Of a stretch of 64,000 nt of DNA, positions 1-63,672 are shown piece after piece. The position numbers and the translations under genes are program-made. Position 1 is the stretch's first letter, and every line of letters starts with the position of its first letter. Origin of the DNA: a virus; the IMG/VR virus record IMGVR_UViG_3300047095_000292, positions 27,908 through 91,907 of that record. The stretch is one strand, 5' to 3'. The notes under the pieces were generated by a model, which had not been told where the DNA came from, did no database searches, and saw only the letters and a program-made list of their open reading frames with translations.

Positions 1-159
1 TTTTATTGTCTTCGTTACTGTACTAGTAGCTGTGACTGCATCAGTGCCAAAATTATATGCGGTATTATTCTTTTGTGTCAATGTAACATTAGAAGCAAGA
101 TCTTTAACAGCATTAAATGCTTTCTTAATCTGCGTCTTGATCATGCTATTGTAACCCAT
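1..159 (-). CDS. Partial ORF running off the window, probable head-closure/neck protein (MGYNSMIKTQIKKAFNAVKDLAS...)
   Basis: ATG at 159 overlaps the stop of the adaptor gene; open to position 1; function inferred from position only. Confidence 0.55.
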   Translation of the reverse strand, partial: MGYNSMIKTQIKKAFNAVKDLASNVTLTQKNNTAYNFGTDAVTATSTVTKTIK

Positions 160-638
160 TAGTTAGCCCTCCACCAGCTATTAGCGCCAGCGTTAACTAG
201 TAATGGTTTGATCAATCGGCGAACGTTTGCCGGAATCAGACTAGGTGGAATGATTGTTGTAAGAGCAACTGAGCCTACCTTAAGATCATTTACAACACCG
301 GTATCATCAAGCAAACCATCATTTAAAAGCATATGATGTGCAAGCTCAATATTAGCAGTTATAATACGACTTGGTACCTCAGTCTCTGACAGAGTAATAT
401 TAGTACCAAGACGTGGATCGAAGTAATAGGCAGAACGCGGAAAAGCTAAAGGTTGTGATTCACCTATGGCTGTGCCTGCCCAAGATTGATCATTCAATAC
501 ACTTGCAGCAGTGACCAATGCTTGAGCTTTGGTGGCAGCGTCTGCTGATGTCCATGCTGCTACATCAAGACGATCCGCAAAGTAAGTATCAGCTTCAGCC
601 ACAGTAGCGTATGAATTTGTTCCTTTGGATAGAGCCAT
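159..638 (-). CDS. Head-tail adaptor, DnaT-like family
   Basis: N-terminal NSYATVAEADTYF and QPLAFPR motifs typical of DnaT-like phage adaptors; directly after the major capsid gene. Confidence 0.75.
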   Translation of the reverse strand: MALSKGTNSYATVAEADTYFADRLDVAAWTSADAATKAQALVTAASVLNDQSWAGTAIGESQPLAFPRSAYYFDPRLGTNITLSETEVPSRIITANIELAHHMLLNDGLLDDTGVVNDLKVGSVALTTIIPPSLIPANVRRLIKPLLVNAGANSWWRAN

Positions 639-655
639 AGGTGTTTCCTTTAATC

Positions 656-1912
656 TTAGGAGTGGAACACTGGCAGAATGCCAAGACTTAGAGCAGAACT
701 GGCCTTACGCTTCCAAGTACCGGAAGTAGTGGTAGTCATTGCAGTCAGGTCAGTCAGCAGCTGAGGCATAGAAGCAGCGATAGCACCGGCAGTGTGCACA
801 TCGGTAGTTGCAGGAGTACCACCAGTACAGCCTGCGGTATCAACCACGTAACCATAATGTGCATCTGACGGGAACTGAGTCGTTAGACCGTTCCAATCGT
901 AACCGCCTGGATGTGCAACATAACCCCAACGATACCAGATGTCGGTAGTACCACCACCACCATATGCGCGAGCATCACGATAGATTTCAACTGGAGTAGG
1001 AACAGCCAGTGATTCCATAGCAATAGAGCCAGGCAGTACGATGAAGGAGGTCTTAGTACCAACGATATCAACACCAGCACCAGCATTAAGCTTAGCTAGT
1101 TGTGCAGTGCTAAAACTCTGAGCAGCACGAGTCTGGATCAGACGGAACTTACCACCGAAGATAGTGTCAAAAGTGACATTGGCTTCAGTTACTTTGGTCT
1201 CATCTACTAGATTAGCTGAACGCAATGATGCGAGCGTCTCTGGACTAACAACTAGATAAGCAAAGTCTGGCTCGTAGTCTTTCCATGCCATACCGACAGC
1301 ATTCAGGAAGCCTTCTGCACGAGCAGCACCTTGGATAGCAGTAGTAGCGGCAATAACAGGTTGAGCAGCACCGAGGTCCACGTAAAAGCCATACTTCATA
1401 TCAGTAGGATCATTGGTGAAGCTTTGACCACCTAGACCAGTTGCGGTAGAACCAGTAGCAGTACCATATAGAGCTTCGGAGGTTGCTACACCTTTCAGAA
1501 CAGCAAGAATAGCATTGTGCTCATCCTGTGAACGAGTCTCACCGAAGTCACGACCAATCTTGGCCAGACCATCAACCTGAGTAATAACTTGCTGCATATT
1601 TACTTGGTTAGCGCCATGCGTACGGACAGTCTTGACATAGGTCGAGAAATCTGACGTGTAGTTAGTAGCAACACCAGCAGTAGAGGCGGTCAGTGAAGCA
1701 ACGTTAATGGTAGGGTTAATTGGCTTGAACCAACGAACTTGTCCAATGAAGGTCTCAGTGGAAGTGTCAATGTTAGGGTTCGGGCCAACAATACCTGTGC
1801 CTGAAAGCTTCTTTGCATTGGTATAAGCCTCGTCACTATAAGCACCAATAGCTGCTTGTAGAGCATAGGTGTTATTACTAGGGGATGCTGCTTGGGTGTA
1901 AATTTGAGCCAT
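656..1912 (-). CDS. Major capsid protein
   Basis: 418 aa, after the scaffold and before the adaptor; C-terminal GGGTTDIWYRWGYVAHPGGYDW resembles coat-protein motifs. Confidence 0.8.
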   Translation of the reverse strand: MAQIYTQAASPSNNTYALQAAIGAYSDEAYTNAKKLSGTGIVGPNPNIDTSTETFIGQVRWFKPINPTINVASLTASTAGVATNYTSDFSTYVKTVRTHGANQVNMQQVITQVDGLAKIGRDFGETRSQDEHNAILAVLKGVATSEALYGTATGSTATGLGGQSFTNDPTDMKYGFYVDLGAAQPVIAATTAIQGAARAEGFLNAVGMAWKDYEPDFAYLVVSPETLASLRSANLVDETKVTEANVTFDTIFGGKFRLIQTRAAQSFSTAQLAKLNAGAGVDIVGTKTSFIVLPGSIAMESLAVPTPVEIYRDARAYGGGGTTDIWYRWGYVAHPGGYDWNGLTTQFPSDAHYGYVVDTAGCTGGTPATTDVHTAGAIAASMPQLLTDLTAMTTTTSGTWKRKASSALSLGILPVFHS

Positions 1913-1924
1913 TTTAATTCCTTG

Positions 1925-2647
1925 TTAGAGTTTGCCCTCCGCTGCGAGTTTTAGAACTTCAGCTTGGGACATATTAAATAGAGATTTCTTACCAGTAGGT
2001 GCTTCGCCAGTTCCAGCACCGGAACCTTGACTACCACCACCAGTATTTACCTTTGCTTTGAATAGAAATGACTGTTCATCGTCTCTTGAAAAGGCTTCAC
2101 AATAGTCCTTGATAGAGATGCCAGTACGATGTACCCACTGGCCTTGCTCATTCTGAACCAGGTTACTAACAATCTCCTTATATGCCATATCAGAAGCTTT
2201 ATCGTTTCTGAAGGTGTAACTCTTAAGTGCATCGCGCACAGCAACATCACGGCTTAGTTCCGTGTTTTGCTTTCTAAGAGCTTCATTTGTGGCTTTTTCT
2301 TCAGCAAGACGCATTTCAAAAGCTTCTTTGTGTTTGCCATCTTCCTCAAGTTTCTTTAGAGTTTGTTCCCTTTCCTTTGCTTCGAACTCTGCATTCTTTT
2401 TAAGTGCAGCATCTCGTGCAGCGTAAGCTTTATCGAGATTTGCCTTAATAGGTGCTAGTTCTTTCTCAAGTCGATCTTTGACCAGTTTAGAGATCATATC
2501 CTGATCACGCTCTTCCTGAGATAGACGCGACAAACGTGCTGTCTCTGCCTCTTGCTCTGCAGCAACTCGTGCGGCTTCCGCTTCTGCGTCCTTTACGGCT
2601 TGTGCAGCAGCTTCAGCTTCGGCAGCAATCTTTTCTTCTTCAGTCAT
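1925..2647 (-). CDS. Capsid scaffolding protein
   Basis: Charged coiled coil followed by FLFK...GGGSQG linker; directly upstream of the capsid gene. Confidence 0.75.
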   Translation of the reverse strand: MTEEEKIAAEAEAAAQAVKDAEAEAARVAAEQEAETARLSRLSQEERDQDMISKLVKDRLEKELAPIKANLDKAYAARDAALKKNAEFEAKEREQTLKKLEEDGKHKEAFEMRLAEEKATNEALRKQNTELSRDVAVRDALKSYTFRNDKASDMAYKEIVSNLVQNEQGQWVHRTGISIKDYCEAFSRDDEQSFLFKAKVNTGGGSQGSGAGTGEAPTGKKSLFNMSQAEVLKLAAEGKL

Positions 2648-2705
2648 TTTATTTTCCTTTACGAGTACAACTCGCTTTAATTATAAGAGTTACAAACTCT
2701 AAGAT

Positions 2706-5700
2706 TTAACCGATTCCATACCAGTACCTGTTATCTTTAAACTGTCCAGGGACAGCTGCAAGGATATCTTCTCTGGTTAGAATATCTGCCTGCGTTAATA
2801 GCTTACCATCGATCCTTGACCTTCCAGCCACAGGTATCAGACCAATATCGATAGCTTCATTCATGTACTTTAGATATAACTCACGCGGCATTCCGCGAGC
2901 GTACATTTCATCTAGAGTAGCTTTTATTGATTCACTTTGTACTGCTCTTGCATAGATTTCTTTTAAGGCCTGACGAGATTCTAACATATCTGCTGCATTT
3001 GTAAAGAAGGCGTCGTGTCTTTGTGTTCAAAAATGTTCGTTAAACATTCTCAGTATTGTCGAGTTAGTTATTTAATAATTCTTCCAAGTGTTACCAATTC
3101 TTATTTGCCTAATAGTGCTAGGATGCGCATTGTAGCTAACTGCAATTTCAGCATCAGATATTCCATTCTTAATTTTAGATCTTATATCAGGAATGTTCTC
3201 TGCTGTTATCTTGCGGGTCCGCAACTTACCACCATAACGACCAATCACTTCAAGACCTAAATGTGTCCAGCTCTCGCCAAGGCGTATTGCGTTAATAGAT
3301 TGACGTGTGACACCATACATAGCAGCAATCGCGGTATCTTTATACCCTACTGACATATAGTATATAATATCAGGAATATCGTCCTCTACTAAAACAGATT
3401 CCGGTCTACCAGAACCATTTAGCATAAGACCTGTATCATACGCATGTTGGACGTTTTCACGAGGTGTTGCCCACGCTAGATTACCAACTACGTTATTATC
3501 TCTAATTCCGTCTAAATGATTTACTTGTGTTTTGTTTTCTGGATTAGGTATAAAAGCTTCTGCTACAAGTCTATGTACTTTCGCCCTGAATGGTTTACCA
3601 TCTACTTCTATTTTAAAATGTCTATAACCATTTTGCAATGAACCATACGTAAGCAAACCAGTGCTTTCGCGCCTTAATCGCCCCAAACTGCTTACAGCAT
3701 ATCTCTTATCTTTATTGCATATACACCAAAATTCTTCCATTACATTTACTCCTTGTGTCTCGACAACACATCTGCATATTACTGTGCAGAACAGACTATA
3801 TCTTCAACAGCCTTATTGCTAGCTGTTGCCCCGCGTTTCGAGCAGACTTCTGCCCTACTCTACTTGGTAGTTACACCGTTCGATAGTCGTTGCACCTTGC
3901 TCTTGCGAGCCTTGGCTCAGGATTGCCCTTATGAGGGTGTCCCCTGAATTAGCGGAGTTTTACTACGGCAAGTTATTCACCGTACCTGTTTGAATATTAT
4001 TCTTTTGTCCCCATAGATGAAATTGCTTTACGATAACCGCATCGTTCAGTTTGTTCAATAGTGTTCGTTAAACGCTATCGGTATTGCGCCAATTAGCATT
4101 TTACTTCCTTTAATGTTGCTTGGCGCGCAACACCTGCATGTCACCATGCAGCTCAGACTATCTCTTATACTATTACTAGTATCTCTACGTTTCGAGCAGA
4201 CTACTGCCCTATGGACTTCATCTTCTGTTCTAGAAGGTATGTCCTAGTCGTTGCACCTTCAAAACCATTCCTGGTTAAGCTTGGCTCAGGATTGACTCAT
4301 GGAGTGTTTCCCTGAATTAGTAGAGTTTATTCACAGCATTTTGTTTACTGTGATTACCGTTTACGGCGTAAGCCGTTCTAGCCTTGCCAGTATCTACAAT
4401 ATCGTTAATAGTACCTTTCTTATTTAGGAAGTACTGTTCCCATGTTGTAGGCTCTGTCTTTTGCTGTACCTGAATAATATTATTTATCCATTTACCTTCA
4501 GCATTTTTGTATGCAAGCTTCTCTTCAAAGGTCTGCGTAAATACCTGTTCCAGAGTTTTACCATCAAAGTTTACCCATGGAATATTAGTCCAAGACTTTG
4601 GTAGCTTATTATCGTAACCAACCTCAATACCTTTGGTAACATCGATACCGGCTATATCAAACTTACCGATTGTAAAGCCAGTCTTTCGATCAACAGGAGA
4701 TTTATAACCCATGATAATATTAGAGACAGTACTGTCTGGCACATATCCGGGAATACGATTAAGTATCTTTTCTTTAATACTTTCATCCTTAATCCCAAGT
4801 GTACGGCTTAACCATTTAGGTAGTCTCTTACCTGCTTTATAATCACCGTATATTGCAGTCTTTAGAGTAGACACAGGGGCAATACTAGCTGCCTTTGGTT
4901 TAGCATGTAAGGCATAATCCTCAGCAAGTCTACCGAAGAACTTAGTAAAGTCCTTTAAGATAGGTACTTGTGATCTTAAATTCTCGGACATGATCATTGC
5001 AATCTGTTGAAAATCGTCAGGTGTCACGACCTTGCCATATTCCCTGCTAAGTTTCTCAACAAAGTCTCTTGTACGGGGTTCAAGGAAATATAGTTGTTCA
5101 AGCATATCATCACCAGGAGCTAAGCCCTTATTGAACATATCCTTCACATCTTGTCGCAATGCCTTCAGTTCTCGATACATATCTGGATCGAATTTTTCAT
5201 ATCGAGCCATCCTTGCACTGATCTCCGACATGACAGCATCACGCTCACTGGCCTTTACAACAAGAAAATTTTCCTGCTTCTCTAATACCTTAGCAAGTTT
5301 GTTTTCTACGTTCATAATGCCTGTACGCTCGCCTGCTCCGTAAAATGTTACCATATTTTGCATTTATGTTTAGTATGATTCGTTAAGTCATACTGGTGTT
5401 ATTGTCAAGTTTGTTAATTAGTAATTAGTCCAAGTTTTCTTTGCTATTCTTAATACTACCCATATTACTTACGAAGTATGGTAAGTTGTCTATCTGTTTC
5501 CAAATCTCGTCCATTTTATACTTTCACATGTGTCTTGACAACACCCTGCATGTTACCATACAGATCAGACTATATCTTCAAAGTAGCATAGCTACGATGT
5601 CCCCCGTTTCGAACTCACTTGAGTCCTACGTCTTTCGACTAGTCGTTGAACCTTCAAAAGTGTTTCCACTTAAGCTTGGCTGCTGATTGTCCTGCAACAG

Positions 5701-8700
5701 GAGTTTCCAGCAATTAAAGGGATTTTACAAGACCAAAAATTAGCCTTGGAAGCCTTACGCAAATCTTTCTCTGTCAGACCTAGCTTCTTGTTAAGTTCTC
5801 TGAACCTTGGATCATTAAAGGTACTTGCTGCTATCTCGTCGTATAACCTCTGCTTCTGATTAGTAGGTACCACATTACTAAGTTGAGCTAATTGTTTATT
5901 CTTTGTGGCAAGTGCAATAATCTGTGCTCCAGAAGAGCTAGCATCTTGCTCTAGTGCGATGGCTATCTTATAGCTGTTAAGCCTCTTCAAGCTAGCCGCA
6001 GAATAATCACCTCCTAAGTATTCGTTTATCTTAGACATCTCTAAAGCAAACCGTAGGACTTTTCCCTGTTCCTCTCCGTCGATCTCCTGTAAAAATTTTG
6101 ATTCTAATATTTTGCGTATATCATTAGGCTTACCACGACGCATCTGATCACCAAGTTGTATCATGTCTTTGCGCCACAGTGTAGCAATCTGTTGTCTACC
6201 AAGTACTGATAGCGAGTTATACCTGTCTTCTAGATGATCAGATGCTCCACCTAGAAAGGCTCCTATCTGGTCCTGGAAGTTAGCAAACTCAATATCGCTA
6301 AAGTTCTTAGCCTGCGCCGTGTTTAAAAACGGTCTACGTTTATGTTCAACAGTATTCGTTAGATACTGCCAGTACTTACCAAGCATTGTTATTGTTTAAT
6401 AGTTTTTCCAGGTCTTACCAGATATAATGCCAGAGATAGTGCCGCTATGCACATTATAATCTCTGCCAATAGAAGCTAAACTTTCTCCAAGTTCGTGTCT
6501 AGTTCGTATATCTGGAATATCCTTACCTGATAGTTTTTTCTCACATATGCTACTTTTAGGACTCTTAGCTGGAAACACTAAGTCTGGTCTAACTTGTTTC
6601 CATGTATCCAAGGTTCGTATCTTAGATATTGTTCCTTTATTAACACCAAACAGCAATCCTATTTCGGTATTATTTAACTCATATTCTACAAATAGCTTTT
6701 TAATATTTTCGACATTCTCTTCATTTAGAACAGCTATGTATGTATCCGAACCAGAAACGCACATATCATTTGACCAAGCGTGTTTCATATTATCTACATG
6801 CGAAAGCCATTCTAAGTTTTCTACTCGATTATCCGTTTTCACTCCATTGATATGATTAACTTCAAGTGATAGATCTTTATTTTCTATAAACGTTATTGCA
6901 ACCAGACGATGCACTGCAATCGTAATATCATCTATATTTACAGCTAGATAACCTTTGCAGTTATCTTTAACTTTTAGCAGTTTCTCACTTTTATTCGACC
7001 ATACATTTCCTAGAGTGCTAATTAAATACTGCGTATTCTTATACTGTTTCCAAATTTCTGTCATGTTAATCTTCCATGTCGTGCTTGGCAGCACTTCTGC
7101 AATTTCGTTTCCTTATATGCAGACCAGACTATATCATCACCGCTGTCATAACAGTACGGTGTTGCGCGCTTCCATCGGACTTCCGATGTACTCCCGTAGG
7201 ATAGTCGTTGAACCTTCAAATTCATTTCTGAATAAGCTTGGCTGCTGATTGTCCATTAACGTATGGAGTTTCCAGCAATTCACGCAATTTTCGATGTATA
7301 TTACTATACAAAGCTTCTGATAACAAAAGTTTCTCCGCTTTGAGGCCCAATAAAGCCTCGTTCATATATACGTGCGCGATGATCTAGGAAGGGATGATTG
7401 CTGAATGCAACATCCTTTGTCCTAAGCCATTTCATTGACTTAAGCCTCTCATATGCATCACCACGTTCAATCATATACTCACGATACTTGTTCAAATCAT
7501 TGTAATACTTAGCTGCACCCTTATCATCTTGAAAGTTTATAAGCTTCTCAATGAAATCATGAAAGTCTGGATCTACCTTGTATTTTGCTGACGCTGCCCA
7601 ATTAAGAGCCCTTGTCATATCTTTATCAATTAACTTGGCAGGGAAATCGCTAAAGGAACTTGTAGATGTAATAGGAATTCGAGTATCCATTAGTCCATAC
7701 ATACCCCTATCAACAAAGTATGTTTTATAGCCCTCACGTATCAAGAGTCTATTACTATCTACAGTAACACCAACACGAAGACCCACATCTACCTTTCGAG
7801 TAAGTCTAGCATACTCTTGAATCCTGGGATCTACAATTCGTAGATTCACTGAGAATGTATCATAGTATGGACCAAAATATGCTCCAAAGTTTCTACTCTT
7901 CATTCTACGTTTCTGTACGCCAAAGGTCTCTAATTCATAGAAGCCCTTACCATGCGCGTCATCTAACAGCTTTACTCCAAGATTATACCATTCGTTACGG
8001 CTACCACGATAGTTAGCCATATTATATAAGTCACGGCCTAGTGCAACTGCTAATTGGTCTCTATCAGGTGAGTCTGCTAGACTAAGACGCCTTGCAAACT
8101 TTAAATAGAAATTATCCAACTGTTCATCATCTAGCCTTATCTTTAATTTAGCGGGTAGCCTGAAGTCTAGTATGTTACGTAACTCTTTAGCGATCTTCGG
8201 AGCAGTGCGATCTTCCCATTTATTCTTAGCAATTATATTAGAAATAAAGTTATCATGTAGCTCTTGTAACTGAGTTGGACCAAGAACTGGATCAATATAA
8301 TTAGCTTGCTTTAATTTGAAAAGAAGATTAGCATCTTTTCTAATTTGAGTCTCGATATAATCAGATACGTTCATAATATCAAACTTAATCTGACCTTGTA
8401 AGACAGCCTTCATGTTAGTCCATGGCTCTTTGTTATCACGAAAACGCCCAAAAGTTATCCGGAGATTTTCAGTAATTACTGCCCTCTCGTTAACACCCAT
8501 GTGATCTTCAAGGCCATCTACAAAGTTCTTAATGAACTCTTTATCTCTAGGTAGAAGAGACTCACTCTCATCTACAAGTTTATACGTATTACGCAATGTA
8601 TCAGGACTTGGTTGGTACATACGGGAATCATCGTACCTGCCAGTGATCGGATTATATTTTAAATTCTCTTCTCTAGGTGGTGATCCAAGTACTCTTGCCT

Positions 8701-9955
8701 TAGTATTCTTTTTATTATGTAGTAAAGTGCCTCGATAATTCGTAAGAGAAAGCGTACCATCTAGCTCTCCTGATTGCAATATGTAATATTCTTTAAGAGC
8801 TTTCTGGAGTTCCTTATTGTCATAAAATTCATCAGGTCTTGCTGCACCTAACTTAATTACATCCAGTCTCTCCTTCGCCAACGCGAATCTTCGAGTGTCA
8901 CCTGGAATTCCATACCCAGAGTCAGTAAGACCTCTAAGCTCTCTAATCCCGACGCTATTGCCGCCTGCATTAGAGAACTTGTCCAAGGTAAGCTGTCCTG
9001 ATCTAAATAGCTCAAGCTTTGTTGTATCGCCAATGTGCTTGAATTGCACCTCAACGGGTTGTCGTTGTAGCCACGCATTATATGATTCCTTAAGAGGAGT
9101 TTGTCCATCGTATAAGGCAATCTGTTTAGCTGACAATCCTTCAAAATTCCTTTTGCGAATTTGTGCAATACCCTCTAACGAACCGAGTTGGTCATAGCTC
9201 TTAACTATTGGTATTGTCGTCGATCTGCAGTACCAGTGTGCTGGTGGCAGATGCTCATGGTCACTTATCGGGTAGATAGTTCCATCCCTTGACGCACATA
9301 AAGGGGTAGTCCTAGAATCTAATACGGCAACATATTGCCATCCTTGTAATGCCTTTTCATTAGCTTTGTAAACTTCATGGTCAGCCTGAGCATATACACT
9401 TGTCGTAGCTGTAACTGTAAGGCCTTTAGCCTGATTCTTTGTTATATTAAAGGTAGACTTAGATATAGACTTAGCAATTTCATTTTCATTAAGACCTTCT
9501 GCTATACCTTTTCTAATCAGCCCTTCAATACGTATCTTCTCATTCTTTCCAATCCCTGCCCAGCCCTGATCTAGTGTTTTATCAAGGTATATCGGCCTGT
9601 GCAATACAATATCCTCTGCAACACGCCTAGGCGGTTGTGATACTCGCCAGATACGTCCAATTGCATCATCCATATTTTGAACAGCATAGGAAGTCTGATC
9701 CTTGAACAAGTCTAAGAGAGAACGGCTAGACACATTGTGTGCATCTGCCATTGTCTTTATAATTTCTTTATCGAGACTTGCTTGAAAGCCTTTAAAGCCT
9801 GTTCCACGTAACTTTGATTCTTTGATAAGACTATCAACGCGCACTGCATGTCCATCAATAATTAACTCTACTTTATTAGAAGTACGTTGCTCATATAAGC
9901 GTATCATTGCTGCACGATTGATACTCTTATCATAAATCTGTGTATTAACATTCAT
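2706..9955 (-). CDS. Spliced gene: MuF (SPP1 gp7-like) minor head domain fused to a T7-like single-subunit RNA polymerase, 1539 aa; exons 9955-7326, 6336-5742, 5360-4347, 4046-3979, 3018-2706
   Basis: MuF motif WQYVAVLDSRTTPLC...PPAHWYCRS; RNAP motifs DHRARIY, motif A EQDASSSGAQ, spliced motif B RKASKA|QNMVTFYG, NGNHS|ND, motif C TV|HDAF; exon lengths 2630+595+1014+68+313 = 4620 nt, in frame. Confidence 0.92.
3019..3978 (-). mobile_element. Group I intron 4 (960 nt) with HNH ORF, in RNAP motif C
   Basis: P1 UACGGU/GCCGUA; core like intron 3; terminal G 3019; GT|A splice gives TGTVHDAFF. Confidence 0.93.
3072..3740 (-). CDS. Intron-encoded NUMOD4/HNH homing endonuclease
   Basis: VSSLGR, VHRLVAEAFIPNPENKTQVNHLDGIRDNNVVGNL, two HTH-like repeats, ends GNTWKNY. 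Confidence 0.9.
   Translation of the reverse strand: MEEFWCICNKDKRYAVSSLGRLRRESTGLLTYGSLQNGYRHFKIEVDGKPFRAKVHRLVAEAFIPNPENKTQVNHLDGIRDNNVVGNLAWATPRENVQHAYDTGLMLNGSGRPESVLVEDDIPDIIYYMSVGYKDTAIAAMYGVTRQSINAIRLGESWTHLGLEVIGRYGGKLRTRKITAENIPDIRSKIKNGISDAEIAVSYNAHPSTIRQIRIGNTWKNY
4047..4346 (-). mobile_element. Group I intron 3 (300 nt), ORF-less
   Basis: P1 UCACAGU/GCUGUGA; elements AATTCAGGGAAAC, AATCCTGAGCCAAG, GGTGCAACGACTA, GAGATAGTCTG; terminal G 4047; splicing gives NGNHS|NDAV. Confidence 0.92.
5361..5741 (-). mobile_element. Group I intron 2 (381 nt), in RNAP motif B
   Basis: P1 CAAGGCU/GGUCUUG with U.G at the splice site; same core elements as intron 1; terminal G 5361; splicing restores R-x3-K-x7-YG. 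Confidence 0.93.
5418..5514 (-). pseudogene. Internally deleted homing endonuclease relic in intron 2
   Basis: MDEIWKQIDNLPYFVSNMGSIKNS (NUMOD4 start) joined out of frame to KKTWTNY*, matching the G[K/N]TWKNY* ends of the intact intron HNHs. Confidence 0.8.
6337..7325 (-). mobile_element. Group I intron 1 (989 nt) with HNH ORF
   Basis: P1 U.G pair at ACT TT|; core elements AATTGCTGGAAACTCC, AATCAGCAGCCAAG, GGTTCAACGACTA, GATATAGTCTG; terminal G at 6337; splicing gives GETFRPFLN. Confidence 0.92.
6396..7064 (-). CDS. Intron-encoded NUMOD4/HNH homing endonuclease
   Basis: MTEIWK...ISTLG (NUMOD4), VHRLVA...VNHINGVKTDNRVENLEW (HNH), two C-terminal HTH-like repeats; likely start ATG 7064. Confidence 0.9.
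   Translation of the reverse strand: MTEIWKQYKNTQYLISTLGNVWSNKSEKLLKVKDNCKGYLAVNIDDITIAVHRLVAITFIENKDLSLEVNHINGVKTDNRVENLEWLSHVDNMKHAWSNDMCVSGSDTYIAVLNEENVENIKKLFVEYELNNTEIGLLFGVNKGTISKIRTLDTWKQVRPDLVFPAKSPKSSICEKKLSGKDIPDIRTRHELGESLASIGRDYNVHSGTISGIISGKTWKNY
8136..8159 (-). promoter_or_regulatory. Candidate phage RNAP promoter inside the MuF-RNAP gene
   Basis: GCTACCCGCTAAATTAAAGATAAG, near-identical to the intergenic copy at 24246-24269. Confidence 0.45.
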
Positions 9956-9963
9956 GATAATCC

Positions 9964-10440
9964 TTAGGACGGCTTATGAAATTCCCCATGATGTTCAGCC
10001 GTAACAGCATCACGAGCCTTGCTTGCTTCCTCTGCAGTATCGTATAGACCGATAGTATGGCGGTTTCCATCAACCACCACCCTCGCCCTCCACTTACCAC
10101 TAAATTTATCTATCCCTTTAAATCCTGACGTGTTAGTACTAGGTGCATTTCTATTCTGCATATTTTGTTCGGCAGTAGCAGGTCGCAAATTTTTTATACG
10201 GTTATTGAGACGATTAGTATCTCTATGATCAACTTTCTCAGGTATGTCGTCATGATGCAACATATAGATCAATCGATGGACCTTATATGTTTTACCACCA
10301 TATTTCACCTGCAGATAGCCTTCGCTATTCTTAGTGCCCACAGGAGAACCCTTAACTATTGAAGGGCCTCCATTAATATTCCAGAACAATTGACCGTCTT
10401 TATAGTAGAATGTTTCTTTAATCTGCTTCTGGGTCAGCAT
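9964..10440 (-). CDS. Free-standing HNH-AP2 endonuclease
   Basis: VHRLIY...VDHRDTNRLNNRIKNL, then SGFKGI...WRA...IGLYDTAEEA; likely start MLTQKQ at 10440. Confidence 0.88.
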   Translation of the reverse strand: MLTQKQIKETFYYKDGQLFWNINGGPSIVKGSPVGTKNSEGYLQVKYGGKTYKVHRLIYMLHHDDIPEKVDHRDTNRLNNRIKNLRPATAEQNMQNRNAPSTNTSGFKGIDKFSGKWRARVVVDGNRHTIGLYDTAEEASKARDAVTAEHHGEFHKPS

Positions 10441-12076
10441 TAGGCTTAGCCTTCTTAAGTGGTGTCTTAGCTTTAGGTGTTGATATACCAGCCATGTCTG
10501 CAACCTTGCTAGCATAGCTGTCGGCATCAACTTGGCCCATCACCATATCATCTTCAGTAATCTCGATCTGACCCTCTTCGTCATTATAATCAGGACTAAT
10601 CATATCATTAACTTTGAGAATCTGTAGCCAAATAGAACGAGGAATGAGTCCACTCTGATACCATTCAGTAGCAAGACGTAGCCAATCAGCACCAAGTGGG
10701 GTTGGATTAAAGTCAGCAGACAACTCAAACTCAATATCAGTATTTTTAAGCTGTAAATCATAGCGCCAGTTAAGCATAAATGCAATAATAGACGCCATCT
10801 GATTACTTACTTTAATATTAAGAGTTCCTAATTGAGCAGTCTGAGCAGCATTACGAATGTCCAGTGCAACACCTGACTGTTGAGTTTCTGGTGTCAGCAT
10901 ACGAATACCCAGCTTAGCCATATCCTCAATAGCAGATGCAATAGCTCTATCCATGTCTGTAAGTGCAGCAGTAGGTGTATCAAGGACAGTAGCTGTAGCA
11001 CCTTCTGGGAGCTTAAGCCAGGTGCCTAAACCGGCATCTACAATTGCATCAAAAGCATCATCAGTTATATTTCCCGTCAATACAGGTGTATACGTAGACG
11101 CGCCATACAACAGATGATTACGTCGGCTCATTTTATTATATAGTGCAACTTCCTTATCAATAAAAGGAGATAGCATAGGTTCAATAACACGAATTGAACC
11201 ATTTAATGGCCATGCAGGAATCTGTGTAAGACGCTCGCCATTCATTAGAATAGTTTCAAGTGTCTCGACTAGCTCATAAGCTGACAATTTAGGATCAGCC
11301 CCAGCTGCATTCTGCGTATACTTCTGTTGTAGTTTGCCGTTAACAACAATCACCTGCGCATCTTCTACCTTCTTCTCATATCTACGGATACGATAGAAAC
11401 CTTCTACGATTTCATGTACGATAACAGTATCTATATAAGACGGATGAAATTCGTTTTCTTCAACGCGCTCTACGTAGTTTCTAACGATAATCTGTTCTAG
11501 AGACTGTACACCAGTATCCTCTCGAGTCGATACTCGCCAATTAATTATAGATTCAGCGTTCCATATTACAGGATAGGGTTTCAGTTCAGCATACTGTTCC
11601 CTAGTAAGATCTTCTGGGTTTAATATCTTAGGATAGTCTACATACACCCATGCTCTGCTTGTCTGAACTTCTTCCCATAGAATTTCATCAAGAAAAGAGA
11701 CCAGCGGTGAGCTATTATGGCTAAAGTGATTCATTATCCATTCATATGCTCCAGCTGGCACCTTACCTTCTGGAAGCTTAAGCTGAGGTTGTTTCCTTAA
11801 CAGACCACCAATAATAATGCGAGCATATTGAGAGACAATACCTGGGAGTTCTGCTTCTGCCTTGTAGAATTCATATTGCTTTGCATCCATTGAGGGCGAG
11901 AAAGGGATCAGCAAATTGCTAAATGTCAGTACATCAAGGTAGCCATCAAAGTCCTTAGCAAAACGCTCACCACCTATAATTGCTCTCGATTTTTCCCATA
12001 AACCTCTCATTGACTCGTATGAAGATGTTGGATCTGCTACTGAACGCTTGTGTTGAACTGCATTGACTACTGACAT
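10418..12076 (-). CDS. Portal protein (DUF4055-like)
   Basis: 552 aa, upstream of the MuF gene; YEFYKAEAELP, RAWVYVDYP...PYPVIWNAESIINWR pattern. Confidence 0.8.
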   Translation of the reverse strand: MSVVNAVQHKRSVADPTSSYESMRGLWEKSRAIIGGERFAKDFDGYLDVLTFSNLLIPFSPSMDAKQYEFYKAEAELPGIVSQYARIIIGGLLRKQPQLKLPEGKVPAGAYEWIMNHFSHNSSPLVSFLDEILWEEVQTSRAWVYVDYPKILNPEDLTREQYAELKPYPVIWNAESIINWRVSTREDTGVQSLEQIIVRNYVERVEENEFHPSYIDTVIVHEIVEGFYRIRRYEKKVEDAQVIVVNGKLQQKYTQNAAGADPKLSAYELVETLETILMNGERLTQIPAWPLNGSIRVIEPMLSPFIDKEVALYNKMSRRNHLLYGASTYTPVLTGNITDDAFDAIVDAGLGTWLKLPEGATATVLDTPTAALTDMDRAIASAIEDMAKLGIRMLTPETQQSGVALDIRNAAQTAQLGTLNIKVSNQMASIIAFMLNWRYDLQLKNTDIEFELSADFNPTPLGADWLRLATEWYQSGLIPRSIWLQILKVNDMISPDYNDEEGQIEITEDDMVMGQVDADSYASKVADMAGISTPKAKTPLKKAKPNADPEAD

Positions 12077-12588
12077 AATGTGGAGTCCCCTGTCTGCAAA
12101 CCTGGATTAAAAAACTCACCGTAATTAGAGATAGCCGCAAGGCAGTACGCTTTATAAGCTTCTTCAGGTGTTTCAAAAAATCCTATAAATTTTCGTTTAC
12201 CTTCTATCCCAATCTTAGCAACCCATTTGCTAAATTGAGAGTTCCACGATACTCCTTTATAACCTGAAGTATTATTAGATCTTAGACTCTGATTATGGTT
12301 ATTATCAGAAAAAGAAGCAGCTCTTAGGTTACAAATTCTATTATCGGTTCGTATGGTATTTACATGATCTATGTTTTCTGCAGGAAATTCGCCATACACA
12401 TATAGCCACGCTAATCTGTGAGCCTTATATGTAACATTTTGTACTCTTATACGTAAGTATCCTGTGTCTGTTAAGCTCCCAGCAATATCACCTGCCTTTA
12501 CACGATTACTTGAAGAAATTCTACGTGTAAACACACCTGTATTACTATCATATATTAGATATTCTTTTAACACAGCTTGTGTTAGCAT
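12067..12588 (-). CDS. Free-standing HNH-AP2 endonuclease
   Basis: AHRLAWLYVYG...IDHVNTIRTDNRICNLR, NTSGYKGVSW, FETPEEA. Confidence 0.9.
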   Translation of the reverse strand: MLTQAVLKEYLIYDSNTGVFTRRISSSNRVKAGDIAGSLTDTGYLRIRVQNVTYKAHRLAWLYVYGEFPAENIDHVNTIRTDNRICNLRAASFSDNNHNQSLRSNNTSGYKGVSWNSQFSKWVAKIGIEGKRKFIGFFETPEEAYKAYCLAAISNYGEFFNPGLQTGDSTLCQ

Positions 12589-12603
12589 TGTAATTATTCT
12601 CCG

Positions 12604-12879
12604 TTATTCACCACGTAGCATAGCACTGAATTCTTTATGTGTACCCTTAAAGACATTGCCTGTTATGTTATTAACAGCCTGTACCTTATCACCGTCCGGT
12701 GTAATGTTCCAGTTTGAGGGGATATTATCAGCACCACCAAGAGGTGTACTAGCTTGTCCTCGTACTTGTTGTAGCTTAGAAGTATCTACAGATACCGCAG
12801 CACCTGGAATATTAGGTGCTCGTGCTTGTGGTTCTTCCTGAAGTGTCTTCTTAGAGCCTGGAATATTTAATGCAGCCAT
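12604..12879 (-). CDS. Small probable virion protein with W-x-I...A-x-N-x2-TG-x2-F module
   Basis: Good SD (AGGAG); module shared with 18333-18608 and 18611-19453. Confidence 0.55.
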   Translation of the reverse strand: MAALNIPGSKKTLQEEPQARAPNIPGAAVSVDTSKLQQVRGQASTPLGGADNIPSNWNITPDGDKVQAVNNITGNVFKGTHKEFSAMLRGE

Positions 12880-12881
12880 CT

Positions 12882-13043
12882 TTATCTCCTAAATCGATTT
12901 CTCATAATATACATTGAAGGCATTGCACCTGCAATACGTTTACCAATATTTATAGCAACAGCAACTACACCTGCCACCATTCCTCGCCAGCTACCTACAC
13001 GCCAGCAACCTGTGCGCCAACAGCCCTGTCTCCAAGTACTCAT
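12882..13043 (-). CDS. 53-aa microprotein with four W-R-x-G repeats
   Basis: MSTWRQGCWRTGCWRVGSWRGMVAG...; ATGA overlap with the upstream gene; fills the gap exactly. Confidence 0.55.
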   Translation of the reverse strand: MSTWRQGCWRTGCWRVGSWRGMVAGVVAVAINIGKRIAGAMPSMYIMRNRFRR

Positions 13044-24245: not shown

Positions 24246-24269
24246 CTTATCATTAATTTAGCGGGTTCG
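24246..24269 (-). promoter_or_regulatory. Candidate phage RNAP promoter for the packaging/structural module
   Basis: CGAACCCGCTAAATTAATGATAAG, repeated at 58897-58920, 33408-33431 and 8136-8159. Confidence 0.6.
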
Positions 24270-29486: not shown

Positions 29487-29879
29487 ATTCCCTTTTAAAG
29501 AATCGTCCACTCAGCATCTTCGCGTTTAAAGCCAAGGTCATCTACAAGACCTTCAATCAGTTCATTTCGGTTCATATAGGAATGTTCCTTGATGTACTGT
29601 ACAACTTGCCAGTCGCGTTCACTCATGGTGCTCTCCTTTGGTTATGAAACAAAGTATTCATGGTAAGCCCTAGCTCCCAGTATTGCGCTAGGATTTACAC
29701 TAAAGCTTTTCTTTACAGGTCAAACAGCTTCATGGCTTCTTCGCGTGATGCGAAGATTCCCATTACAACGTGGTCTGCGGACATGACCAGGAAACCGTGA
29801 TGTGTTTTGCGGATTGCCATTTTAAAGCTCCTTTTGTGGTGGTGGTTGTATTCATATAAGATACCACAAAAGCCGCAGT

Positions 29880-35953: not shown

Positions 35954-35957
35954 AATA

Positions 35958-60315: not shown

Positions 60316-61411
60316 TAAAAAACTCCATAACCTTTCTCTTTAGCTCAGGATCCCTTGTAGATACTACAAGAGGTTTCTTGTAGATACCAATCTTAAATCG
60401 CCAATCTAAATACCGATCGTATAATAACACAGTAGGCTTATCAAGTGCAAGCGCAAGATGTGCAAAAGCTGTATCTACCGTTATTACACCATCCATTGGT
60501 CCCAGATAACTAGCAGTATCAAGGAAGCATGTAATACCCTTTGTTACATCAGTGCCTATCTTCTCTTTACCACCCATTTGGAAGTTATACATCTCATACA
60601 CATCAAGAAATTTCTTAAACGCAGAAATTGGGACTAATCGTTCTTTATGTGCATTACCTTTGCCACTTGTGCTATATACGAAAGCGATATTAGGCCTCTT
60701 AGAGAACTGAATCTCTGCAGGTACGTCTCCTGTGTACTTAGATAGCTCAGGAAATTTCCCAAACTTTTCTACATACATACAGAATAAGTCACCTGTAGAT
60801 GTTACGTAATCATAGTGTTCCTGTAGATACACATCCGAGTTATCATAATTTAGTTCATCCTCAATGTACATTTCAAATTCTGGAGGATAATTGTGCCTGA
60901 ACAACAGACCAAGCTCACCTCTAGAGTATATGAAGATACGTTTACAGCCAGCCTCTGGTAAGTACTTATAGACATGTGAGAACATCAGGTCGTCCCCAAA
61001 GCCTTGCTCACCTATTACAAAGACCCTCTTATCTTTAAGCTGATCCCATGATTTTAGATAAGCAATAGCCCTGTGCATACCTGTATATTGATCAAATGCC
61101 GGTTCGCTCGTGTACCACCGATAGTCATACTCCTTAAAACCGGAGATGTCACCTTTATTAAGTTTGTTAATACCTAACAGATTTCTTAGTTTAAAGTCCT
61201 CCTTAAACTTTAGGTATTGAGTAGCATACTCGGTAGATTCGTCATACTCACCCACTAGATAATAATTATTAGCTAGATGTTTTATACAGTCAAGCGTTGT
61301 ACTCTCCCCAAGGTTCTGGGAAAGTGCAATCTTTAAGTATTTAATTGCCTCACGAAGATTACCCTTCTTTTCTAATTTAAATATTTTTACAAGTATTGGA
61401 ATTTTGTTCAT
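60293..61411 (-). CDS. TPR-repeat protein with a GT-B (GT9-like) glycosyltransferase domain
   Basis: TPR-like N-terminus; GFKEYDYRW, EQGFGDDLMF, VITVDTAFAHLALALDKP. Confidence 0.8.
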   Translation of the reverse strand: MNKIPILVKIFKLEKKGNLREAIKYLKIALSQNLGESTTLDCIKHLANNYYLVGEYDESTEYATQYLKFKEDFKLRNLLGINKLNKGDISGFKEYDYRWYTSEPAFDQYTGMHRAIAYLKSWDQLKDKRVFVIGEQGFGDDLMFSHVYKYLPEAGCKRIFIYSRGELGLLFRHNYPPEFEMYIEDELNYDNSDVYLQEHYDYVTSTGDLFCMYVEKFGKFPELSKYTGDVPAEIQFSKRPNIAFVYSTSGKGNAHKERLVPISAFKKFLDVYEMYNFQMGGKEKIGTDVTKGITCFLDTASYLGPMDGVITVDTAFAHLALALDKPTVLLYDRYLDWRFKIGIYKKPLVVSTRDPELKRKVMEFFNDRNKEL

Positions 61412-63672
61412 GCAAATGCATACTCCGAATCTAGAATTAGTGTTATGTCAAGACTACCAAGCTCTACATTGCTAATATCGCCCTCGATATCTATCATAAT
61501 TGAACTCAAAGGATCTGCCTTGTATAGCTCTACAAATGTCTCTCGAATGATGATGAAGAGGTCAGCCATATCTCCAAGCAAGCACCCAAATGAATCATGA
61601 ATGGTGGTAACAGGGAAATCGGCTCTATGAACAGCAAGCATTAGGTGTGCAGCGTCAAGACTATGAATAGCATTTGGTGAAGCTCCCTGAGATTGTTTCT
61701 TTTTGCTATGCTTTGTATGTTCTAGAAAACATATCTTTAGTTGCAATGTGTTCTCAAAACACCCATGACTGTTTCGTTCACCAATAGGTGGTCCGTACTG
61801 TACATTAAGCATCTTTACAATGCCCTCTGTATAATGTTGGACTACAGGAAAATCTGTGATTGGGACAGTCCATGCAAGAAACTCATCACGCGCCTCCGCC
61901 TTCTTTCCAGCTTCCTCGAATACTGAAAGTAGCTGCATAGGCCTACGTAATGAGACACGACAGTCATCATATACTTCACGACCCATGTATGAACCCCAGG
62001 CATGCTCCATAGAGAACAGTTGATCAATGCCATGTTTACGTGCATCATCAATAACTTGCTGTCCAAGGCCATATGCAGTACCGCCATAGGGCAATGTCAT
62101 TACATTTCTCTTACAGATCTTTCTCTTATGTTTTGCATCAGTGATACGATTCCAATATACACATGCTGACTTCTTAAGAAGGCCCTCATGATGTTTCTTG
62201 TAATCGATAATTTCAGATATTAACTCTTTACGTCTGTCTGATTTTAGAGGTGCCTCATTGATTTGATGCTTTAGATCTGAAATATTGTCAATGAACTTTT
62301 CACATTCTTTTATCTCATTCTTAGATAGCTTAGATACTTCTTCTTCGATCCTGAGCCAGACATGGTCAGCAACATACTTATATAAATCGCCAGGAAGATC
62401 AAGTGGTACCAGATTGACGTGTGGCGCAGTAATCTCATCGCGAGTTAATGCTGATAAGTGTTGGGAACCATTGTTTGAGCCATCAATATAACATTCAATA
62501 CTGCTCTGATAATCGTACTCATTCAGCTGTCCGTCATTTATTGCAATACTGTAGATCAATTGCCAATCACGCAATTTCTTTAATTCAAAGCATGCAGCTA
62601 GAAATTGCCATGGTTTATCAGCATGCATCCATCCCTGATTAATCTTCGGAGATAACGCATAGGACAAGATGATTTCCTCATTATCTAGAACCCAATAGAC
62701 CCTGTCATTGAGAGGGATCTTATCTGTCTTATAACCATCATCTCGCCCTGCATCTCCGGCCCAATTAGAGGCAATGGAGATAAGCAACCAAAAATAACCC
62801 TGTTCTCCGATAGATTTTTTATCTGCACGTAGCAGTAATCCTTTTGCAAGATCAGTTCCCTGCTCATTAAGATATGCTGTTGATGGGTACTTCCTTCCCC
62901 TAAAGTCGTACGTGTATAAGTGATAAAAGGTCTTTCCAATAAATCTTTTGGCGATTGATCCAATTGCCTTAGCCTCTCTTATCTTACTTTGTTTTGCTTC
63001 AGGATTGTGCATCTCCCAGATGTCAGCAAAGGCCTCTGTTTTGTTCCGCAATGCCCATGTGTAGATAGGATAAATATCCTCGTTAATCTGCCATCCAACA
63101 GCTTGTGCCTTATTCAGACAGTCGAATACAATAGGATGTGTTTCAGGTGTAAGCTTACGTAAAACCTCTTTGTTAGATGTCTTTACCATGGCTCGCCCAC
63201 TGTCACTATGAGATGATGTCCAGGGGCTGTATGGAGTTTCGCTTGGAAGTTTCTCAGTCTTATCATTCGAGATACTATCCCACAATAGACTAAGCTTATC
63301 TTCCTCTAAGATCTCCACAGTATATGTTGCATGATGATTGGTAGCCTTGCCTAATACTACATGGAGTAACCCTACTACCTCGAAAGTGTAAAGTATGAAT
63401 GCCCCCGCCTTTGCTGCAGCACCACTATCACGCTTTAGCTTATGTACGTTACGAATACCATGACCTATGGCTGAAATTACCTCAGTCATGAGTGTTATCT
63501 TCTTTGATGCCCCTCTGCCTGCCCTGGTGTATAAGTAGATTACTGAGATTGCTAAATCAATCATCTCAGCACAATCAAGATCCTTTATAAACTTAACTGG
63601 ATTTTGTGGTGCAATGTCAGAGGCAATACGTTGTGTTAAGGAAGCAATTAATTTTTGTTTTGTGCTTTCCAT
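61408..63672 (-). CDS. T7-like single-subunit DNA-directed RNA polymerase (754 aa, no introns)
   Basis: DFRGRKY, DGSNNGSQH, RKICKRNVMTLPYG, PNAIHSLD, IHDSF. Confidence 0.96.
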   Translation of the reverse strand: MESTKQKLIASLTQRIASDIAPQNPVKFIKDLDCAEMIDLAISVIYLYTRAGRGASKKITLMTEVISAIGHGIRNVHKLKRDSGAAAKAGAFILYTFEVVGLLHVVLGKATNHHATYTVEILEEDKLSLLWDSISNDKTEKLPSETPYSPWTSSHSDSGRAMVKTSNKEVLRKLTPETHPIVFDCLNKAQAVGWQINEDIYPIYTWALRNKTEAFADIWEMHNPEAKQSKIREAKAIGSIAKRFIGKTFYHLYTYDFRGRKYPSTAYLNEQGTDLAKGLLLRADKKSIGEQGYFWLLISIASNWAGDAGRDDGYKTDKIPLNDRVYWVLDNEEIILSYALSPKINQGWMHADKPWQFLAACFELKKLRDWQLIYSIAINDGQLNEYDYQSSIECYIDGSNNGSQHLSALTRDEITAPHVNLVPLDLPGDLYKYVADHVWLRIEEEVSKLSKNEIKECEKFIDNISDLKHQINEAPLKSDRRKELISEIIDYKKHHEGLLKKSACVYWNRITDAKHKRKICKRNVMTLPYGGTAYGLGQQVIDDARKHGIDQLFSMEHAWGSYMGREVYDDCRVSLRRPMQLLSVFEEAGKKAEARDEFLAWTVPITDFPVVQHYTEGIVKMLNVQYGPPIGERNSHGCFENTLQLKICFLEHTKHSKKKQSQGASPNAIHSLDAAHLMLAVHRADFPVTTIHDSFGCLLGDMADLFIIIRETFVELYKADPLSSIMIDIEGDISNVELGSLDITLILDSEYAFA

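Follow-up and report, generated by a model that had tools for sequence, protein, structure and literature searches.

Positions 9955-2706 on the minus strand of the window, the 64,000-nucleotide stretch of DNA analysed here, hold a single gene of a 92-kb environmental phage, with five exons separated by four group I introns. Its spliced product joins a MuF/SPP1-gp7 minor head domain (residues about 1-350) to a complete T7-like RNA polymerase (RNAP) that begins at about residue 565. The protein is probably a MuF-anchored virion RNAP, carried in the capsid and starting infection before a second, canonical RNAP takes over, and we give this reading a probability of roughly 0.6. To our knowledge, virion-carried RNA polymerases occur in only a few phage lineages, among them those of the N4-type, the jumbo-phage/crAss-type, and the tape-measure-fused P23-45-type.

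The splice sites of the fusion gene were set from homologue alignments and from the P1 pairing of each intron (Table 1). All four introns match the Rfam group I model on the minus strand (RF00028; 72-89 bits against a cut-off of 50), U is the last base of each 5' exon and is paired with G in the intron P1, and every intron ends in G. Joining the exons gives a 4620-nt frame of 1539 amino acids without a stop, and residues 2-1539 are collinear with the intron-less, 1494-aa homologue P0020 at 66.8% identity, gap-free at all junctions. The first-pass annotation of this DNA had proposed one 1539-aa protein after splicing and a search for intron-less, full-length homologues; such homologues, P0020 among them, were found, and the exact length, the open frame, and the end-to-end alignment bear the proposal out. 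The motifs it quoted are likewise all present, i.e., the MuF motifs at 212-245, DHRARIY at 858, EQDASSSGAQ at 1006, R1070-x3-K1074-x7-Y1082-G1083, NHSND at 1411, and VHDAF at 1436. The four junctions thus follow the U and G rules and restore the frame, and splicing is predicted. Among 53 related IMG/VR loci, about half contain the fusion as an uninterrupted ORF.

The first ORF of the gene spans 883 aa (7304-9955, minus strand), while exon 1, the start of which agrees with the family consensus N-terminus, ends at a splice site following a U paired with G in the intron P1. Intron 2 interrupts motif B between K1074 and Y1082 (junction KASKA/QNMVTFYG). For intron 3, the Rfam 5' end is off by 34 nt; the exon end ...CACAGU pairs with the internal guide, and the junction NGNHS/NDAV was fixed from homologues. 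Intron 4 is inserted one codon ahead of motif C. Two of the four introns contain HNH endonuclease genes, and free-standing HNH genes flank the portal gene. As the introns hide the fusion gene, automated gene calling and annotation break it up and give it the name "head morphogenesis".

Table 1 Features of the fusion gene, its surroundings, and the second RNAP gene, in window coordinates
Feature	Position	Strand	Details
Major capsid protein gene	656-1912	-	Product 50% identical to EBPR gp52 and 43% to DSS3_VP1 major head protein
Scaffold-like gene	1925-2647	-	Directly downstream of fusion gene
Exon 5	2706..3018	-	aa 1436-1539 and stop; motif C (H1437, D1438), C-terminal tail
Group I intron 4	3019..3978	-	960 nt; Rfam 78.7 bits; intron P1 ACGGU/GCCGU
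HNH homing endonuclease gene in intron 4	3072-3740		Pfam HNH_3
Exon 4	3979..4046	-	68 nt; aa 1414-1436; tblastn to EBPR gp49 and DSS3_VP1; frame restored
Group I intron 3	4047..4346	-	300 nt; without ORF; Rfam 71.9 bits
Exon 3	4347..5360	-	aa 1076-1413; rest of motif B (Y1082, G1083), fingers region with large insertion relative to T7, H1412
Group I intron 2	5361..5741	-	381 nt; without ORF; Rfam 89.4 bits
Exon 2	5742..6336	-	aa 877-1075; palm motif A (D1008), first half of motif B (R1070, K1074)
Group I intron 1	6337..7325	-	989 nt; Rfam RF00028 81-82 bits
HNH/NUMOD4 homing endonuclease gene in intron 1	6396-7094		Downstream of ribozyme core; Pfam HNH_3, NUMOD4
Exon 1	7326..9955	-	aa 1-877; MuF domain, linker, RNAP N-terminal part up to DHRARIY...GETF
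P1 motif copy within fusion coding sequence	8134..8159	-	PWM score 33.7 of 39.1
MuF (SPP1 gp7 / Mu F) domain core	9212..9529	-	aa 143-248; Pfam Phage_Mu_F
Free-standing HNH endonuclease gene	9964-10530
Portal gene	10418..12076	-	Pfam DUF4055; directly upstream of fusion gene
Free-standing HNH endonuclease gene	12067-12588
P1 promoter-like motif	24246..24269	-	Heads packaging/head operon holding fusion gene
Canonical T7-like RNAP gene	61408..63672	-	754 aa; without MuF domain; PF00940 E 4e-63

The N-terminal MuF domain named in the first-pass annotation is confirmed by a Phage_Mu_F match (PF04233; E 2e-16, 61 bits against a cut-off of 29.6, and 65.3 bits in the genome scan), and the T-T-C...P-P-H-C-R-S residues at 212-245 are invariant across the family. 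Among BFVD entries, a structural model of residues 1-600 (pLDDT 85.7) resembles minor capsid and head-morphogenesis proteins of phages, with the MuF-ADP-ribosyltransferase fusion of Xanthomonas phage Xp12 among the fold matches. The MuF slot between portal and scaffold, also claimed earlier, is found both here and in related loci, the portal gene lying upstream in all of those with enough flank. According to a genome profile scan, the fusion is the sole MuF gene of the 100%-complete genome, and the N-terminal MuF domain is kept in all six distant full-length relatives (23-35% identity). Judged from these sequence comparisons, the MuF-RNAP fusion is old and obligatory. MuF/SPP1 gp7 proteins dock on the portal and enter the procapsid in a few copies. 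The fusion gene lies within a late packaging/head operon, downstream of a late P1 promoter-like site that comes 70 nt after a strong terminator (a hairpin and T16 at 24340), and would be transcribed late along with the head genes. Once the four introns had been spliced out, the resulting protein of about 170 kDa would dock on the portal through its MuF module and bring the RNAP into the procapsid head in a few copies.

The structure of the RNAP part was predicted for the 67%-identical homologue P0020, standing in for the window protein. This model (pLDDT 78) aligns with T7 RNAP residues 36-882 at Z 27.2 and an rmsd of 3.8 Å over 526 residues, matches T7 RNAP in Foldseek at E 2e-19, and displays the right-hand fold, including the T7-type N-terminal domain. 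By hhalign, D537, R627, K631, Y639, G640, H784, and D812 of T7 correspond to D1008, R1070, K1074, Y1082, G1083, H1412, and D1438 of the fusion. When the window was searched exon by exon with PF00940 (RNA_pol), exon 2 scored 17.4 bits against a cut-off of 22, while the intron-less orthologues (61-67% identity) reached 41-48 bits and DSS3_VP1 27.1 bits. The fold match, the catalytic residues, and the orthologue scores bear out the C-terminal single-subunit T7-type RNAP proposed at first pass, and the modelled part is complete and apparently catalytically competent. The sequence is strongly divergent, as single-sequence searches of the fusion RNAP against PDB chains gave no match and the family profile reaches T7 RNAP at only E 0.006, and the module could accordingly be regarded as an inactive relic, serving a large minor head protein purely as structure or ballast. 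This is very improbable, however, since at least 90% of the family, whose members otherwise share 22-67% identity, retain the catalytic columns (in an alignment of 33 proteins) and the nucleotide-binding residues, the whole T7 fold is preserved with its N-terminal domain, and homing introns, which usually sit at essential conserved sites, are found at the catalytic motifs.

The separate intact RNAP that the first-pass annotation had noted elsewhere in the window is a canonical T7-like enzyme that shares 35% identity with the RNAP annotated in DSS3_VP1 and is related to the fusion RNAP around motif A only. Such a separate canonical gene is present in all complete relatives checked (six of six) and in the cultured roseophage DSS3_VP1. 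The candidate promoter sites of these phages are linear motifs of about 30 nt and fall into two promoter-like classes, a T3-like P1 and a P2 with the core ATCTTATATG, and these two classes would fit a two-polymerase relay. The P1 motif contains AATTAACCCT, which we take to match positions -17 to -8 of the T3 promoter, and it heads the replication and structural modules (packaging/head, tail/lysis). In the proposed relay, the canonical RNAP would read these P1 promoters after taking over from the fusion.

The P1 copy within the fusion coding sequence lies at about residue 599, close to where the RNAP module begins, with the introns, the scaffold gene, and the capsid gene downstream of it, and it is kept at the same site in the related loci L006, L003, and L004. 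In principle, it could yield a shorter, MuF-less product. Its position, shared with the 67%-identical homologue, and the low-confidence linkers joining the MuF region to the RNAP would suit a late polymerase acting in the producing cell, either freed by proteolysis or made from the internal P1, with MuF alone being packaged. Yet this seems quite unlikely, as no in-frame ATG lies just past the internal P1 (the first Met is about 40 residues on), and no prohead protease gene was seen by Pfam between the portal and capsid genes. A free late RNAP would also duplicate the canonical enzyme, whose putative promoters already head the late operons, and relatives as distant as 23% identity still keep the fusion. 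The internal P1 itself may persist through conservation of the peptide or may boost scaffold and capsid expression.

The P2 core occurs in two to six coding-strand copies per genome (six genomes), against 0.1-0.2 expected (computed for three genomes); the other strand has 0-1 copies and the reversed control 0. In all six genomes, the P2 cluster is located just upstream of the canonical RNAP gene, ahead of small genes. Its sequence is invariant among phages with diverged P1, the invariant bases being ATCTTATATGA plus CGCAAAA. These P2 sites are the likely targets of the fusion RNAP, which in the next infection would exit with the DNA and transcribe the first genes. A strong terminator, a hairpin and T24-28, lies between the P2 cluster and the canonical RNAP gene, so early expression of that gene would need read-through or another promoter, and transcription of the second RNAP gene by the fusion is thus the weakest step of the proposal.

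Host RNA polymerase reads the A1-A3 promoters of T7, and it could be speculated that it also reads P2, expressing the early genes and the canonical RNAP, while a packaged fusion has an accessory task rather than an obligatory one as early transcriptase, for instance drawing the genome into the cell through transcription or aiding against host defences. The T7-like layout of a promoter cluster, small genes, and then the RNAP gene is in line with this, and the invariance of P2 despite the diverged P1 would be expected for a conserved host reader. In addition, the P2 sites of genome G002 display sigma-70-like -35 boxes (TTGACA/TTGACG) 17 nt before TATATG. However, the sites of G000 and G004 lack a -35 box at 16-18 nt, the invariant bases differ from the sigma-70 consensus and cover would-be spacer positions, and sigma-70-like sites are not enriched in early regions, making this combined reading, host transcription from P2 with an accessory packaged enzyme, unlikely. 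We infer the packaging, ejection, and activity of the fusion protein as well as the assignment of promoters to polymerases. A packaged and injected early RNAP is partly supported, agreeing with the sole-MuF status, the late operon, the catalytic residues, the two-RNAP set-up, and the two promoter classes.

The proposal resembles gp50 of N4 (Schitoviridae) in that a late-made, capsid-carried, single-subunit T7-related RNAP is followed by a second phage RNAP, and injection of the virion RNAP to transcribe early genes has been shown in N4. N4 promoters are DNA hairpins, whereas the candidate sites here are linear. The gp50 of N4, a podovirus, is about 3500 aa long and stands alone, bringing its own ejection and encapsidation domains at the N- and C-termini and lacking MuF (PMC5512222). 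In contrast, the fusion has a MuF anchor and 1539 aa, and its cultured relatives DSS3_VP1 and DSS3_PM1 are siphoviruses; no N4-type domain was found in the fusion protein by Pfam. In fold, the P0020 model matches T7 and mitochondrial RNAPs at Z 24-27 but the N4 mini-vRNAP at Z about 15, which makes the fusion an analogue of the N4 enzyme and not part of its family. This difference (about 15 against 27 for T7), the length, and the MuF N-terminus set the fusion apart from the N4-like virion RNAPs. T7 RNAP itself is an early, non-virion enzyme. The fusion agrees in fold with the T7/T3 RNAPs (Autographiviridae) across T7 residues 36-882 and has every catalytic residue in common with them, but identity is about 18%, an insertion of about 200 aa separates motif B from the H784 region, and the polymerase follows about 560 aa of MuF and linker.

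In the siphovirus P23-45 of Thermus, the RNAP is likewise joined to a structural component of the virion, the tape measure protein, and transcribes pre-early genes, including that of a second, non-virion RNAP (PMC10770324). Yet it is a two-barrel, cellular-type enzyme on a tail protein, whereas here a T7-type right-hand polymerase is attached to a head protein. MuF proteins are described as head components fused to effector domains predicted for delivery to the host, with toxins, ADP-ribosyltransferases, peptidases, and nucleases as cargos, and virion RNAP modules were reported only in N4-like phages (Iyer et al. 2017; PMC5512222). While polyvalent proteins, MuF polymorphic toxins, and the Xp12 protein share the N-terminal MuF plus an enzyme domain and a portal-adjacent gene, a full RNA polymerase is absent from the catalogue of Iyer et al.

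Orthologues are found in DSS3_VP1 and DSS3_PM1 (Naomviridae; gp108, 31-33% identity) and in EBPR siphovirus 1 (gp47 and gp49, 48-65%), identities referring to aligned pieces. These also combine MuF with RNA_pol in the portal-scaffold/capsid slot and are accompanied by a second annotated RNAP, and in EBPR siphovirus 1 an HNH-bearing intron lies close to motif B. They are annotated as head or hypothetical proteins only ("head morphogenesis" in DSS3_VP1). The paper on cultured DSS3_VP1 leaves RNA polymerase unmentioned, the accessible papers on these phages make no mention of the polymerase part, and no paper describing a MuF-RNAP fusion was found. The DNA of DSS3_VP1 contains dU in place of dT.

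Every virion RNAP lineage known so far has been instructive on how proteins are ejected and how transcription proceeds independently of the host. Tentatively, and with some doubt on our part, the MuF-RNAP can be seen as an independent invention of a virion RNAP, in which a T7-type enzyme was placed on the generic MuF delivery module and reads a conserved early promoter of its own, with the core ATCTTATATG. The idea can be tested directly in cultured members of the group, DSS3_VP1 and DSS3_PM1, both with Ruegeria pomeroyi as host. If true, the fusion would be a compact (170 kDa) T7-type virion RNAP, and the widespread MuF "cargo slot" would be able to deliver a whole transcription machine, beyond toxins. 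The family may also be a source of a new orthogonal pair of T7-like polymerases with their putative promoters. For the phages themselves, a packaged MuF-RNAP would explain how gene expression starts, in some of them on dU-substituted DNA, and a large, mostly uncultured clade of siphoviruses with a T7 replicon, including the dU-DNA Naomviridae, would be independent of host RNAP from the first minute.

The fusion of a MuF head domain with a T7-like RNA polymerase (MuF-RNAP) is encoded in a region, window positions 1-13000, where the minus strand holds every long ORF. Pfam placed the Phage_Mu_F domain at amino acids (aa) 143-248 of an 883-aa ORF (7304-9955, E 2e-16), gave a weak RNA_pol match for ORF 5670-6386 and identified ORFs 6396-7094 and 3072-3740 as HNH endonucleases. 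Rfam detected four minus-strand group I introns at 72-89 bits, above the gathering score of 50. Two phage homologues, aligned by tblastn, and inspection of the junction sequences set the exon borders; Rfam puts the 5' end of introns 3 and 4 in the wrong place, and the true site was taken from homologues and the P1 pairing of the ribozyme. The final U of every 5' exon pairs with a G of the internal guide sequence, and the last intron base is G in all. Joined, the exons give 4620 nt and 1539 aa with no stop in frame, the same length as claimed for the spliced protein in the first-pass annotation. Residues 2-1539 are collinear with P0020, an uninterrupted homologue of 1494 aa, at 66.8% identity and with gap-free junctions.

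Features of the MuF-RNAP gene and its genome (window positions unless stated otherwise)
Feature	Position	Strand	Details
Exon 1, MuF-RNAP gene	9955-7326	minus	tblastn and junction sequences
Exon 2, MuF-RNAP gene	6336-5742	minus	tblastn and junction sequences
Exon 3, MuF-RNAP gene	5360-4347	minus	tblastn and junction sequences
Exon 4, MuF-RNAP gene	4046-3979	minus	tblastn and junction sequences
Exon 5, MuF-RNAP gene	3018-2706	minus	tblastn and junction sequences
Introns 1, 2, 3, 4, MuF-RNAP gene		minus	989, 381, 300, 960 nt
Intron positions in protein			GETF/RPFL; within motif B KASKA/QNMVTFYG; NGNHS/NDAV; one codon 5' of HDAFF
Free-standing HNH genes	9964-10530, 12067-12588, 33435-34103, 35420-36046	minus	
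dCMP/cytidine deaminase family gene	30574-30918	minus	
tRNA-Met (CAT), single	53002-53078	minus	
P1 motif		coding	AACCCGYTAAATTAA then TGATAAG or CCCTGAAAGGG; 4-6 copies per genome
P1 copy within fusion gene	8134-8159	minus	about aa 599; site kept in relatives
P2 motif, bipartite		coding	CTGCGCAAAA, about 4 nt, then GGTATCTTATATGA
P2 sites	29852-29879, 33311-33338; genome 1442, 1925, 3258 (outside window)		
Terminator-like hairpins	63898, 29452, 24340	minus	T24, T26, T16 runs; between transcription modules
Dropped hairpin promoter candidate	63816-63860	minus	equivalents in G005 and G004

Among 5.8 billion proteins searched, 226 relatives of residues 350-876 were found. Many are 1490-1533 aa long and carry both PF04233 and PF00940; the first-pass annotation had suggested looking for intron-less, full-length homologues. 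Many others end near 880, 1080 or 1412 aa, which are intron sites of the window gene. Among 53 IMG/VR loci compared, the gene is uninterrupted in about half, and the remaining loci have insertions at aa 243, 694, 877, 984-988, 1075-1082, 1110, 1410-1413 or 1438. On this evidence, the fusion is the native state, and its gene is a hot spot that homing introns invade. Homing elements are unusually abundant in the window's genome (G000): free-standing HNH homing endonuclease genes, some with AP2 or NUMOD4, lie on either side of the portal gene and in the replication region. A relative with a 104-kb genome (G005, loci L052/L053) has five insertions in its MuF-RNAP gene, one of them within the MuF domain at aa 243. 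The gene for the canonical RNAP, a second T7-like enzyme without MuF, is in pieces in the relatives G002, G003 and G005, presumably through introns.

The polymerase module starts near residue 565. When exons 1, 2 and 3 were compared as single sequences with PDB chains using phmmer, no polymerase was found, and T7 RNAP was reached only by a family profile (E 0.006) and by hhalign (E 4e-5). The intron-less homologues P0020, P0044 and P0077 exceed the Pfam RNA_pol cut-off (41-48 bits vs 22). Structure prediction, also proposed in the first-pass annotation, was applied to P0020 (locus L006) residues 341-1494 with 26 relatives rather than to the window's spliced protein, giving a pLDDT of 78 and a pTM of 0.73. 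T7 RNAP was the first-ranked Foldseek match of this homologue model (E 2e-19), and VIA-align superimposed the two with Z 27.2 and rmsd 3.8 A, the 526 aligned residues spanning 36-882 of T7 RNAP. Mitochondrial RNAPs came next (Z 24-26, VIA-align), whereas N4 mini-vRNAP reached a Z of only about 15. In the hhalign alignment of the family profile, T7 D537, R627, K631, Y639, G640, H784 and D812 correspond to D1008, R1070, K1074, Y1082, G1083, H1412 and D1438. These seven catalytic columns are conserved in at least 90% of 33 aligned family members (22-67% identity), which counts against the rival explanation of an inactive polymerase module. A recent duplication of the canonical RNAP was rejected as the origin of the fusion RNAP, as the two profiles align over 54 columns only, around motif A (E 0.007).

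Turning to the N-terminal half, the MuF signature is kept in at least 90% of the same 33 members, and a helical linker domain occupies residues 350-560. Residues 1-600 of the window protein were modelled with AlphaFold (pLDDT 85.7), and this model had no PDB relative in Foldseek because, to our knowledge, no MuF structure has been solved to date. The model resembles predicted phage head-morphogenesis and minor capsid proteins, and its best structural matches are a 1463-aa protein of the cultured roseophage DSS3_VP1, gp59 of Pelagibacter phage Kolga and the Xp12 MuF-ADP-ribosyltransferase.

Against 1.84 billion representative proteins, the polymerase part matched only 167 clusters with E below 0.001, and none of the 150 matches listed was evidently a canonical T7-like RNAP. 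All six of the most distant full-length members scanned (23-35% identity, 1411-2073 aa) have an N-terminal MuF domain, and such retention counts against the rival explanation that the MuF and RNAP halves become separated. Within 50,697 phage records, the fusion was found only in EBPR siphovirus 1 and the roseophages DSS3_VP1 and DSS3_PM1. DSS3_VP1 gp108 is uninterrupted, 1463 aa long and annotated as 'head morphogenesis', and it scores 51.7 bits for MuF and 27.1 bits for RNA_pol. In contrast, Kolga, a more distant relative with one RNAP, has a 633-aa MuF protein (gp59, L057) in which a zinc-metallopeptidase-like C-terminus (Peptidase_Mx1/ATLF, a weak match below cut-off) replaces the RNAP, which suggests that the C-terminal cargo position of MuF is exchangeable within the clade. 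Across 185,579 species genomes, the family was absent from bacteria save one MAG bin, and a prophage origin was rejected, as this lone carrier is a 74-kb contig that is probably phage. No description of a MuF-RNAP fusion was found in the full-text literature searched, which covers part of the journals, and RNA polymerase is unmentioned in the DSS3_VP1 papers and in the 2025 Naomiviridae single-particle study. MuF proteins are known as head components, the domains fused to them being predicted as delivered effectors, and virion RNAP modules were described by Iyer et al. 2017 as restricted to N4-like phages (PMC5512222).

The viral record of 91,907 bp, of which the window covers bases 27908-91907, is 100% complete by CheckV, with a 137-nt overlap between its ends, and the minus strand carries every gene. 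The gene order is canonical RNAP, T7-like replication module (primase-helicase, DNA polymerase, exonuclease and ligase), terminase, portal, MuF-RNAP, which is the sole MuF gene, scaffold, capsid and tail. Both polymerases occur together in all five other complete relatives (G001-G005, 70-104 kb) and in DSS3_VP1. The contig ends were not accepted as physical ends of the genome: in G004 and G002 the 'terminal repeats' are exact assembler overlaps of 127 and 123 nt, and four contigs break near a T17-31 homopolymer, mimicking genome ends. The genome encodes a protein of the dCMP/cytidine deaminase family, and the complete genome has neither ThyA nor ThyX. Related phages, the Naomviridae, swap dT for dU with a deaminase of this family. 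The DNA of the window's phage might therefore be modified; the lack of a YfbR-type HD phosphatase (dTMP phosphatase) and the recovery of the phage and its relatives by ordinary metagenomics were counted against dU-DNA.

Two classes of promoter-like motifs, P1 and P2, were found, each confined to the coding strand. P1 stands before the replication, packaging/head and tail/lysis modules; its G004 and G002 versions include AATTAACCCT, which matches the T3 promoter exactly from -17 to -8. The 10-nt core of P2, ATCTTATATG, has 5, 4, 4, 2, 4 and 6 exact coding-strand copies in the six genomes, against 0.1-0.2 expected from base composition (computed for three genomes), 0-1 on the opposite strand and none for the reversed control. 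In all six, 2-5 P2 copies cluster in a small-gene region directly upstream of the canonical RNAP gene on the circular map, and P2 is unchanged even where P1 diverges. P2 is a candidate early promoter. Early transcription by the host polymerase is a rival explanation. In its favour, the P2 sites of G002 have a -35 box at proper spacing; against it, this box is missing from those of G000 and G004, and sigma-70-like sites show no enrichment in the P2/early regions. The hairpins with T16-T28 runs look like strong, unusually long-tailed terminators, and one stands between the P2 cluster and the canonical RNAP gene. Several relatives have contigs that break at the corresponding homopolymer. Between this kind of poly-T terminator and the same gene, an N4-type hairpin promoter was considered in G000, G005 and G004 (a stem of 4-6 bp with compensatory changes, after which come CAGAAC or AAC and a TATA-like box) and dropped, since G001 and G003 lack it.

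On the simplest reading, each of the two conserved promoter classes has its own T7-fold polymerase. The canonical RNAP would read the T3-like P1 before the replication and late modules, while P2, before small early-type genes, would be read by MuF-RNAP or the host enzyme. The proposed role of MuF-RNAP parallels that of N4 gp50 and of the P23-45 RNAP, which is joined to the tape measure protein and likewise serves to express a second RNAP (PMC10770324). Packaging and ejection appear most likely because the gene lies in the late head operon and encodes the sole MuF protein, the catalytic residues are intact and the fusion is retained over deep divergence; packaging itself is quite probable. The fusion would be made from the late head operon, enter the capsid through its MuF part, leave together with the DNA and then start transcription, an early-transcriptase role to which we assign a probability of roughly 0.6.
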